The notes under the pieces were generated by a model. It was not told the DNA's origin. It did no database searches and saw only the letters and a program-made list of their open reading frames with translations. Below are positions 43,213-45,126 of a stretch of DNA of 64,000 bases, piece by piece. Numbering within the stretch: position 1 is the stretch's first letter; each line of letters opens with the position of its first letter. The translations under genes were made by a program, and so were the position numbers. This DNA is from Escherichia coli (GTDB lineage Bacteria; Pseudomonadota; Gammaproteobacteria; Enterobacterales; Enterobacteriaceae), in assembly GCF_003334305.1 (NCBI RefSeq), contig NZ_QOWS01000015.1, one strand, 5' to 3'.

Positions 43213-43401
43213 ATGGGCAAAGCAACGTATACCGTGACCGTCACCAATAACAGCAATGGCGTTTCTGTCGATTATGAAACAGAGACGCCGATGACTTTGC
43301 TGGTGCCAGAAGTGGCGGCTGAAGTGATAAAAGATTTGGTGAATACCGTGCGTTCTTATCCGGTGCGCCGTAAAACCCCGTCCTTCAGGGCGGGGATATA
43401 A
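43213..43401 (+). CDS. yoaG: Small protein YoaG; 3' end appears to run into the IS left end
   Basis: 62-aa ORF starting 4 bp after yeaR; last ~15 codons overlap the predicted IS left-end hairpin. Confidence 0.75.
   Translation: MGKATYTVTVTNNSNGVSVDYETETPMTLLVPEVAAEVIKDLVNTVRSYPVRRKTPSFRAGI
43374..43397 (+). repeat. Predicted IS left-end subterminal imperfect hairpin
   Basis: CCCCGTCCTTCAGGGCGGGG; core 18-mer CGTCCTTCAGGGCGGGGA matches the right-end copy 16/18 in direct orientation. Confidence 0.45.
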
Positions 43402-43416
43402 GGCGCGGTTTTCCAC

Positions 43417-43848
43417 CTAACCAGGTGTTTGCTGTTGTTCAATGTATTGGCGGATGACGGATATTGGCGCACCTCCGCAGCTACTGGCAAAATAGCCAGG
43501 ACTCCACAAAACGCCTTTGTAGTAATACCTGACTGCAATATCTGGTCGATCTCGTCGCAGTAACCTACCCGATACGCCTTTGAGGCTGTTTACCAGACTG
43601 GATATCGCCAGTTTGGGAGGATAGTTAATTAACAAATGGACGTGATCTGGTTCGCCATCCATTTCAACAAGTTCAGCTTCAAAATCAGCACATACATTTG
43701 AAAAGTAAGTGCGTAGTTTTTCTGTCGCGTCATGGTCAAAAATCTGGAGTCGGTATCTGGTGACAAAGACCAGGTGAACATGCATCAGGAAAACACAATG
43801 CCTTCCACGCCGGATATCGGTTTCTTTTTTCACAGACCAAAGTATCAT
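43417..43848 (-). CDS. tnpA: IS200/IS605-family Y1 HUH transposase TnpA
   Basis: 143-aa ORF with HUH motif (PDHVHLLI) and catalytic-Tyr helix (GGAPISVIRQYIEQQ). Confidence 0.85.
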   Translation of the reverse strand: MILWSVKKETDIRRGRHCVFLMHVHLVFVTRYRLQIFDHDATEKLRTYFSNVCADFEAELVEMDGEPDHVHLLINYPPKLAISSLVNSLKGVSGRLLRRDRPDIAVRYYYKGVLWSPGYFASSCGGAPISVIRQYIEQQQTPG

Positions 43849-43855
43849 TTGACCT

Positions 43856-45064
43856 GTGAAACGATTACAGGCATTTAAATTCCAGTTAAGACCAGGTGGT
43901 CAACAGGAGTGTGAAATGAGGCGCTTCGCAGGCGCATGTCGTTTCGTTTTCAATCGTGCTCTGGCACGTCAGAATGAGAATCATGAGGCCGGTAATAAAT
44001 ACATCCCTTACGGGAAAATGGCTTCCTGGCTGGTTGAGTGGAAAAACGCCACTGAAACGCAATGGCTTAAAGATTCGCCCTCACAGCCATTGCAACAGTC
44101 ACTGAAAGACCTTGAGCGGGCTTACAAAAACTTCTTCCGGAAGCGGGCTGCTTTTCCCCGATTCAAAAAGCGGGGACAGAATGATGCATTCCGCTACCCG
44201 CAGGGCGTAAAGCTCGATCAGGAAAACAGCCGTATTTTTCTGCCGAAACTGGGCTGGATGCGCTACCGGAATAGCCGTCAGGTCACGGGTGTTGTGAAAA
44301 ATGTCACGGTCAGCCAGTCCTGCGGTAAGTGGTACATCAGTATTCAGACAGAAAGTGAAGTATCCACTCCGGTTCACCCTTCAGCATCAATGGTCGGGCT
44401 GGATGCTGGCGTGGCTAAACTCGCCACGCTGTCAGATGGCACAGTCTTTGAGCCTGTAAACAGTTTTCAGAAAAACCAGAAGACGCTGGCGAGACTTCAG
44501 CGACAGTTAAGCCGCAAGGTCAAATTCAGCAACAACTGGCAGAAGCAGAAACGCAAAATACAGCGACTGCATTCCCGTATCGCAAATATCCGCAGGGACT
44601 ACCTTCACAAAGTCACAACGACCGTCAGCAAAAACCACGCAATGATAGTCATTGAGGATTTGAAGGTCAGCAACATGTCAAAGTCAGCAGCGGGTACGGT
44701 CAGCCAGCCGGGGCGCAATGTCCGGGCAAAATCAGGTTTAAACCGTTCGATACTGGATCAGGGCTGGTATGAAATGCGCCGCCAGCTTGAGTACAAGCAG
44801 CTCTGGAGTGGCGGTCAGGTGCTTGCTGCTCCGCCAGCGTACACAAGCCAGCGTTGCGCGTGCTGTGGTCATACAGCGAAAGAAAATCGCCTGTCACAAA
44901 GTCAATTCAGATGCCAGGTATGTGGATATACAGCGAACGCCGATGTAAACGGCGCTCGTAACATTTTAGCGGCGGGGCACGCCGTTCTTGCCTGTGGAGA
45001 GATGGTGCAGTCAGGCCGCTCGTTGAAGCAGGAACCCACCGAAATGATTCAGGCGACAGCCTGA
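43856..45064 (+). CDS. tnpB: TnpB (IS605 OrfB) RuvC-like RNA-guided endonuclease
   Basis: 402-aa ORF; N-terminal FKFQLRP...CRFVFNRAL, RuvC-like GLDAG / IEDLK / [10 protein letters not shown], zinc finger CACCGH...CQVCGY. Confidence 0.85.
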
Positions 45065-45126
45065 ACGTAGCAGGGATCCTCGTCATTCAGGGCGTGGAGG
45101 ATGTCAAGACACGGAAAACGAACATG
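44900..45126 (+). ncRNA. Predicted omega-RNA (right-end RNA) scaffold plus guide for TnpB
   Basis: Inferred by analogy to characterised TnpB systems, where the RNA overlaps the tnpB 3' end and the right end; not directly detected. Confidence 0.3.
45077..45100 (+). repeat. Predicted IS right-end subterminal imperfect hairpin
   Basis: CCTCGTCATTCAGGGCGTGGAGG; direct-repeat partner of the left-end hairpin. Confidence 0.45.

Follow-up and report, generated by a model that had tools for sequence, protein, structure and literature searches.

A 64,000-nt stretch of Escherichia coli DNA (contig NZ_QOWS01000015.1; hereafter the window) carries an insertion in the last codons of yoaG whose two ends contain directly repeated, hairpin-forming sequences. 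We conclude with high confidence that each repeat forms the core of one of the two subterminal hairpins (the imperfect palindromes IPL on the left and IPR on the right) that belong to a 1748-bp insertion sequence, a copy of IS609 located 3' of a TTAT tetranucleotide, for which we propose an IS608-like mechanism. An initial annotation, made from the sequence alone, had interpreted the repeats as left and right end signals of an IS200/IS605 element, and that interpretation is supported here by exact boundaries, by recurrence of the ends at seven loci, and by the TnpA and TnpB proteins encoded between them.

The boundaries were determined by joining the two flanks (43110–43359 and 45108–45357) into an artificial empty site, which was searched in 5426 complete E. 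coli genomes. A one-piece, full-length match was found in 4318 of them (99.8% identity among the matches listed), spanning an intact yeaR-yoaG-yeaQ region and reading ...CGTTCTTAT|GACACGG... around the junction. Because the joined flanks match intact yoaG in these 4318 genomes, the inserted DNA is exactly 43360–45107, 1748 bp, with the window + strand as its top, active strand and with neither terminal inverted repeats nor a target-site duplication. The bases at the two junctions are unlike (T|C at the left junction and A|G at the right one), which excludes both boundary ambiguity and a target-site duplication; the flanks rejoin at 43359|45108 with no duplicated bases, as the initial annotation had expected. 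Probes spanning the junctions were fully covered in 1099 and 1100 of the genomes, so that about 20% carry the same insertion, and the 1099 occupied and 4318 empty sites together account for nearly all of the 5426.

This empty-site alignment had been proposed in the initial annotation, which allowed that it might place both repeats outside the inserted DNA. Both lie inside, separated from the left and right ends by 16 nt and 10 nt, respectively. The annotation had also placed the ends near 43357 and 45110 by assuming IS608-like spacing; each of these estimates is 3 bp away from the true end, at 43360 and 45107 respectively. The assumed spacing holds on the right, where the 10 nt equal those of IS608, but not on the left, where 16 nt replace the 19 nt of IS608.

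The left 18-mer CGTCCTTCAGGGCGGGGA (43379–43396) and the right 18-mer CGTCATTCAGGGCGTGGA (45081–45098) lie on the + strand in the same orientation, 1702 bp apart, with 16 of 18 positions identical, all exactly as first described. When both strands of the 64-kb window were searched with up to three mismatches allowed, these two were the sole matches; 0.05 matches were expected from shuffled sequence, and none of 100 shuffles contained two or more. The pair is real and non-random, and it lengthens to a 21-nt direct repeat with 18 identical positions (43376–43396 and 45078–45098).

The left end reads, in order, TTAT, the 12-nt segment CCGGTGCGCCGT, AAAA, the hairpin CCCCGTCC-TTCA-GGGCGGGG, and ATAT. 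The hairpin (IPL, 43376–43395, + strand) forms eight pairs, with a T.G wobble at position 6, and holds most of the left 18-mer. Its fold of −7.5 kcal/mol (z = −3.0) was equalled by none of 200 shuffles. An extended imperfect palindrome (43365–43406, + strand) encloses it, and a DNA fold of 43350–43420 gave −14.7 kcal/mol (z = −2.2). The TTAT (43356–43359, + strand), directly 5' of the element, is part of yoaG; since the empty site contains it and all copies of the element follow TTAT, we assign it to the host as the target and left cleavage tetranucleotide (CL). The four nucleotides 5' of the hairpin foot, AAAA (43372–43375, + strand), are the predicted left guide tetranucleotide (GL), parallel in position and sequence to the AAAG of IS608, and the ATAT 3' of the foot (43396–43399, + strand) is the counterpart of the IS608 ATAC.

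The right end has the same layout, reading GGAT, CCTCGTCA-TTCA-GGGCGTGG, and AGGATG-TCAA, with A45107 as its last base. GGAT (45074–45077, + strand) occupies the position of the IS608 right guide tetranucleotide (GR), GAAT, and is predicted to have the same role. The right hairpin (IPR, 45078–45097, + strand) holds most of the right 18-mer and forms six of eight pairs in the register of the left end, and the 10-nt tail AGGATGTCAA (45098–45107, + strand) ends in the right cleavage site (CR), TCAA, at 45104–45107. The minimum-energy fold of the window IPR uses another register (ATCCTC/GAGGAT) and, at −2.9 kcal/mol (z = −0.56), is no better than shuffles. Thus the earlier description of each 18-mer as lying within an imperfect palindrome applies strongly to the left repeat and only weakly to the right one.

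The weakness of the right hairpin is specific to a variant. In the ten IS609 copies compared below, the commonest right 5' arm is CCACGTCC, and CCACGTCC-TTCA-GGGCGTGG forms a clean eight-pair hairpin in the left-end register, with a fold of −7.7 kcal/mol (z = −3.15). T45080 and A45085 are substitutions relative to this commoner arm; they break two pairs, and the window hairpin is weakened to −2.9 kcal/mol because of them. One of the two mismatches between the 18-mers, G43393 against T45095, is compensated in the commoner version, in which the left C:G pair becomes A:T. The identical 60-nt right end of the window copy turned up in 1511 records, among them the yfeD copy of O157:H7, from which it follows that the variant either has an old origin and moved in the past, or was spread by gene conversion.

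We compared the window copy with nine further copies (L001–L009), ten in all, distributed over seven loci: yoaG, a TetR gene beside ytfB, a DUF3251 gene beside nrdR, yedK, yfaY-yfaV, ydcL-ydcO and gltX-yfeD. Each copy is 1748 bp long without indels, and the copies are 15–43 substitutions apart, the window copy being 97.8–98.9% identical to the other nine over the whole element. At all seven loci, C/T-TTAT (YTTAT) precedes the element and GGAGGATGTCAA ends it in every copy, while the flanks are unrelated and carry no duplication.

Between the ends lie two divergent genes. The first, tnpA (43417–43848, − strand), is transcribed towards the left end and encodes a Y1/HUH transposase of 143 aa; PDHVHLL holds its HUH motif (HVH), and RQYIEQQ its catalytic tyrosine. 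It matches profile NF033573 with 142.8 bits (cut-off 55) over model positions 2–126 of 126 and Pfam Y1_Tnp over positions 1–121 of 121 (E = 1.4e-40), and solved TnpA chains align to it through the HUH motif and the YIE tyrosine. The second, tnpB (43856–45064, + strand), of the insQ family, encodes a 402-aa protein that is by homology an RNA-guided endonuclease, with the RuvC D/E/D motifs present. It matches NF040570 with 384.8 bits and contains Pfam OrfB_IS605, Cas12f1-like TNB and helix-turn-helix (HTH) domains; ISDra2 TnpB structures match it full length (E = 2e-55), in an alignment that covers the D, E and D motifs. In IS608 the two genes are co-directional, unlike the divergent pair of IS609, whereas IS605 of Helicobacter pylori, a member of the same family, has divergent tnpA and tnpB.

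On these sequence grounds the element is IS609, of the IS200/IS605 family. Both proteins typical of the family are encoded, and RefSeq labels the tnpA of two of the nine further copies, about 98% identical to the window copy, as "IS200/IS605-like element IS609 family transposase". Another of the nine is the copy of K-12 with insQ. Several features that define the family were found: a small Y1 HUH transposase with a single tyrosine; subterminal palindromes in the same orientation without terminal inverted repeats, a repeat search having found no inverted pair joining the left and right ends; and insertion 3' of a specific tetranucleotide kept on the left flank, here TTAT at 7/7 loci. TTAT has been reported as a frequent left cleavage site within the IS200/IS605 family (PMC9956272). 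A classical DDE insertion sequence was considered and rejected, as there are no terminal inverted repeats, no duplication and no DDE transposase domain. The 1748-bp element is common, occurring at a coverage of at least 80% in 4859 of the 5426 genomes, mostly at 95–99% identity.

The end anatomy of IS609 parallels that of IS608 (ISHp608) of H. pylori. In IS608, TTAC lies 19 nt 5' of the left hairpin foot, IPL is followed by ATAC, and TCAA is found 10 nt beyond the IPR foot on its 3' side (PMC3201880); GL is AAAG and GR is GAAT, the cleavage sites are read by base pairing with these guides rather than by the protein, and in the complex the nucleotides 3' of IPL take part in base triplets (PMC5934647). 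Both elements have direct subterminal hairpins, guide tetranucleotides 5' of each foot (predicted ones in IS609), TCAA 10 nt 3' of the right foot, an AT-rich tetranucleotide 3' of the left hairpin (ATAC in IS608, ATAT in IS609), and insertion 3' of a tetranucleotide without duplication. They differ in target and left guide (TTAT with predicted AAAA in IS609, TTAC with AAAG in IS608), in left spacing (16 nt against 19 nt) and in GR (predicted GGAT against GAAT), and the match of IS609 TnpA to the IS608 chain reaches only E = 2e-18.

For the guide comparison we used the mapping stated for the IS608 left end, in which cleavage position −4 pairs with guide base 2 and −3 with guide base 1 (PMC5934647). 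A further pair, of cleavage position −1 with guide base 4, is our own extrapolation, and makes the IS608 pairing of GAAT with TCAA fully Watson–Crick. Under this rule the predicted GL AAAA would fit TTAT with T:A, T:A and T:A, and the predicted GR GGAT would fit TCAA with T.G, C:G and A:T. The change of target from TTAC in IS608 to TTAT in IS609 is matched by the change of left guide from AAAG to AAAA, a consistency at the level of sequence.

By analogy, we propose a pathway in which, once the top strand (window +) is single-stranded, the shape of each hairpin would be what a TnpA dimer binds, as shown for IS608. AAAA on the left and GGAT on the right, the four nucleotides 5' of the hairpin feet, would pair with the cleavage tetranucleotides, TTAT in the flank 16 nt upstream and TCAA ending 10 nt downstream at the last base of the element. 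With cuts 3' of TTAT and 3' of TCAA, the element would leave as a single-stranded circle and yoaG would be rejoined precisely. The circle junction would read ...GGAGGATGTCAA|CCGGTGCGCC... (TCAA|CCGG), and the restored donor joint ...CGTTCTTAT|GACACGGAAAAC... (TTAT|GACA). Cleavage after TTAT and TCAA with exact resealing would explain both why the hairpins are direct rather than inverted and why no target duplication is present.

The top strand is the window + strand, as defined by the hairpin with the T.G wobble, TTAT on the 5' side and TCAA on the 3' side. GC skew is positive on this strand, and yoaG lies on the minus strand of K-12 at 1.879 Mb, a position that we take, given the coordinates of oriC and the terminus, to be in the left replichore. 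The top strand would thus be on the lagging-strand template; as this is a single insertion, the placement is only consistent with the bias of the family, whose insertions favour the top strand on that template (PMC5027513).

More distant relatives were collected by a TnpA protein search of plasmids, and the boundaries given for them are predicted ones. In a Photobacterium element (TnpA 58% identical), the left end reads CAAG as GL, then CTCCGTCC-TTGTA-GGGCGGAG, with the predicted site TGAC exactly 16 nt upstream of the foot, and the right end reads GAAT, CCCCGCGC-TTTA-GCTCGGGG, then AGGATGTCAA. In a Hydrogenimonas element (TnpA 54% identical), the left end reads AAAA, CCACCTCT-TTCA-AGTGGTGG, then ATAT, with TTAT 17 nt upstream, and the right end reads GAAT, CCATCTCA-TTTA-TGGGGTGG, then AGTATCAA. 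The stems of both show compensatory paired changes relative to IS609 with the irregular position 6 kept, and the left and right hairpins resemble each other within each element. GR is GAAT in relatives L011, L012, L013 and L014. The 10-nt tail AGGATGTCAA is identical in the Photobacterium, E. fergusonii and Klebsiella relatives, the last two of which (L013 and L014) share the longer tail GGAGGATGTCAA and have GAAT as GR. No convincing left cleavage site was located in L013 or L014 by the guide rule, and these two were left out as support. A locus of Enterobacter huaxiensis (L010), with no recognizable left hairpin downstream of tnpA, was not used.

The right end probably has a second role, by analogy with ISDra2 of Deinococcus radiodurans, in which the TnpB guide RNA comprises the 3' end of tnpB, the right end and about 16 nt of flank, and the transposon-associated motif (TAM) equals the transposase target (PMC8612924). 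IS609 resembles ISDra2 in the full-length TnpB alignment, and the same guide and TAM logic would be expected, with TTAT as the predicted target and TAM in place of the TTGAT of ISDra2. The right end would probably also encode the 3' part of the TnpB guide-RNA scaffold, and read-through from 45108 onwards would supply the guide, predicted as GACACGGAAAACGAAC (45108–45123, + strand), the first 16 nt of the right flank and the displaced 3' end of yoaG. With TTAT as TAM, TnpB would cut the vacated yoaG site, and the element would be restored by recombination.

Some RNA-level features of the right end were found. A stem in the 3' end of tnpB (44991–45034, + strand) resembles RAGATH-18 (Rfam RF03064; E = 0.007, with 29.5 bits where the gathering score is 44.9) and is probably part of the TnpB guide-RNA (omega/reRNA) scaffold, RAGATH-18 RNAs being guide RNAs of IS607 TnpBs (PMC11061315). 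A consensus fold of seven IS609-like right ends keeps this stem and also pairs ACAUUUU (about 44961–44968, in the tnpB coding sequence) with AGGAUGU (45098–45104), with almost no covariation. A permissive Rfam scan of 43000–45500 found no described family for the ends, the RAGATH-18 match being sub-threshold only, and the RNA fold of 44900–45107 was unremarkable (z = −1.72) and supports no guide-RNA structure. Separately, the 12-nt tail GGAGGATGTCAA is unchanged in elements whose TnpA proteins are only 50–58% identical, which suggests a constraint beyond TnpA, possibly a guide-RNA scaffold.

Several observations weigh against the assignment of the repeats as working IS608-like ends. TnpA binding, the pairing of guides with cleavage sites and the guide RNA are all drawn by analogy, and the proposed right-end pairing includes one wobble (T.G). 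Among the relatives, the left and right hairpins of L013 and L014 are not obvious direct repeats of each other, and a relic on a Salmonella spv plasmid (L015), which we treat as decayed, has TTAG where the rule predicts TA?T. Among the ten E. coli copies the ends are no more conserved than the interior, with 8 variable sites in the first 60 nt compared with 105 over the 1748 bp. The tnpA stop codon (window 43417–43419) is TAA in the window copy and L009, giving 143 aa, and CAA in the other eight, three of which also have internal stops. The end variation and the stop losses point to little recent selection for mobility, and the weak right hairpin, at −2.9 kcal/mol, may mean that the window copy excises poorly.

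In a first alternative, the element is the same but the window copy is a transpositionally inert relic, with decaying hairpins and an insertion maintained by vertical descent only. We take this seriously, while leaning somewhat away from it. Its case rests on the two substitutions that cut the right hairpin to six of eight pairs, on the presence of the same insertion at one site in about 1100 of the 5426 genomes, on ends no better conserved than the interior, and on the eight sampled copies that lack the tnpA stop codon, three with internal stops. Against it, tnpA (143 aa, full model coverage, HUH and tyrosine) and tnpB are both intact in the window copy; the same variant right end at a second locus (yfeD of O157:H7) suggests past mobility, unless it arose by gene conversion; and an imperfect stem could be stabilized by TnpA binding. 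Conversely, IS609 may be a native TnpA/TnpB element that still functions, in which the 6/8-pair right hairpin of the yoaG and yfeD copies would remain transposition-competent and TnpB would cut vacant yoaG with TTAT as TAM; we regard this as unlikely. Two other explanations concern the repeats themselves. The hairpins might act mainly as RNA, the left one ending or stabilizing the minus-strand tnpA transcript (a GC stem and then UUUU) and the right one serving as a guide-RNA module. On the minus strand the left hairpin does have TTTTAC on its 3' side, shortly past the tnpA stop; a transcript of the guide-RNA scaffold would be expected to include the right end, and the alignment of seven right ends contains the RAGATH-18-like stem and a conserved long-range pairing. 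However, the left hairpin, with no more than four T's, was not called in a promoter and terminator scan, the Rfam match is below threshold and the long-range pairing almost lacks covariation; moreover, this explanation leaves the likeness of the two hairpins, their direct orientation and the guide-like match to TTAT and TCAA unaccounted for. We consider it improbable as the primary explanation, while an RNA role of the right end is plausible as an additional function. Finally, the repeat might be a chance similarity, or a host element like the repetitive extragenic palindromes (REPs) that flanks the insert without belonging to it. The short length of the repeat could be read in this way, as could a weak TnpA match to REP-associated tyrosine transposases (RAYTs) that stays below the cut-off (22 bits, cut-off 80), yet two matches occurred in none of 100 shuffles, both repeats lie within the 1748 bp that 4318 empty sites lack, and both accompany the element at seven different loci, so that we give this explanation almost no weight. 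A REP/RAYT system was likewise rejected on the score against NF047646 (22 bits, cut-off 80), the direct rather than inverted orientation of the repeats, and their inclusion in the mobile 1748-bp unit.

The comparison with the K-12 copy (ydcL-ydcO, insQ) illustrates the variation within IS609. The two copies agree in length (1748 bp), gene pair and ends, at about 98% nucleotide identity, and differ in insertion site, yoaG rather than ydcL-ydcO. The K-12 tnpA has CAA and an internal stop, whereas the window tnpA keeps its TAA stop. T45080 and A45085 in the right hairpin set the window copy apart; in K-12 it is the left stem that is changed, with A in place of G at the site corresponding to 43380.

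Further observations concern the ten copies. CAA at the tnpA stop position would add 11 codons, the next stop being a TGA in the loop of the left hairpin, and the Prokaryotic Genome Annotation Pipeline (PGAP) marks tnpA of the eight CAA copies as pseudogenes; tnpB is open in all ten, save for small C-terminal changes in L007 and L009. At the 105 variable sites of the ten copies and seven loci, many shared states do not follow one tree, for example T at 45080 in the window copy, L003 and L006, and 43966/43968, common to the window copy, L005, L007 and L008. Such shared states are compatible, as sequence patterns, with gene conversion between copies. An inverted repeat, TTTCACAGACCAAA / TTTGACCTGTGAAA, at 43828–43861 has 14-nt arms that are complementary at 12 of 14 positions and a spacer of 6 nt. 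It covers both of the divergent start codons, the tnpA ATG at 43848 and the tnpB GTG at 43856, and varies among copies at 43828, 43829, 43833 and 43852; its role could be that of an operator or of a structure in RNA.

Two of the plasmid relatives have unusual architectures. In E. huaxiensis plasmid p1_090008 (L010, 2654–2771), a tnpA homologue (66% identical) contains about ten in-frame tandem 9-bp units, GTTGAACTG, which lengthen the annotated protein to 159 aa. In Klebsiella pneumoniae plasmid pRHB39-C10_2 (L014, 1160–3194), a single tnpA is flanked by two tnpB genes, with two right ends 89% identical over 61 nt and 1974 bp apart, which looks like tandem or nested IS605-type elements.

The insertion also alters its host gene. 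The open reading frame list gives a chimeric yoaG at 43213–43401 (+ strand; stop at 43399–43401), in which the last 11 yoaG codons (DTENEHDVCGW) are swapped for 13 codons of the IS left end (PVRRKTPSFRAGI); yoaG is intact in K-12 and in the empty-site genomes. The new stop falls just past the left hairpin. The altered gene is present in about 1100 of the 5426 genomes, and the insertion looks vertically inherited.

The element and its mechanism are already known, and family understanding is unchanged by these results. Literature surveys list IS609/insQ; we found in them no description of its ends, TAM or guide RNA. The predictions made here, namely TTAT as target and TAM, AAAA and GGAT as guides, spacings of 16 and 10 nt, and a weakened right hairpin in this lineage, follow from the IS608 and ISDra2 models. 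The base-exact boundaries and annotated end anatomy of a common E. coli insertion are useful for annotation, and they show yoaG to be C-terminally remodelled in about one fifth of complete E. coli genomes. If IS609 were still functional, the window copy would offer a natural test of the degree of imperfection in a hairpin that TnpA can accept, and a resident RNA-guided nuclease would be present in about 20% of E. coli genomes.

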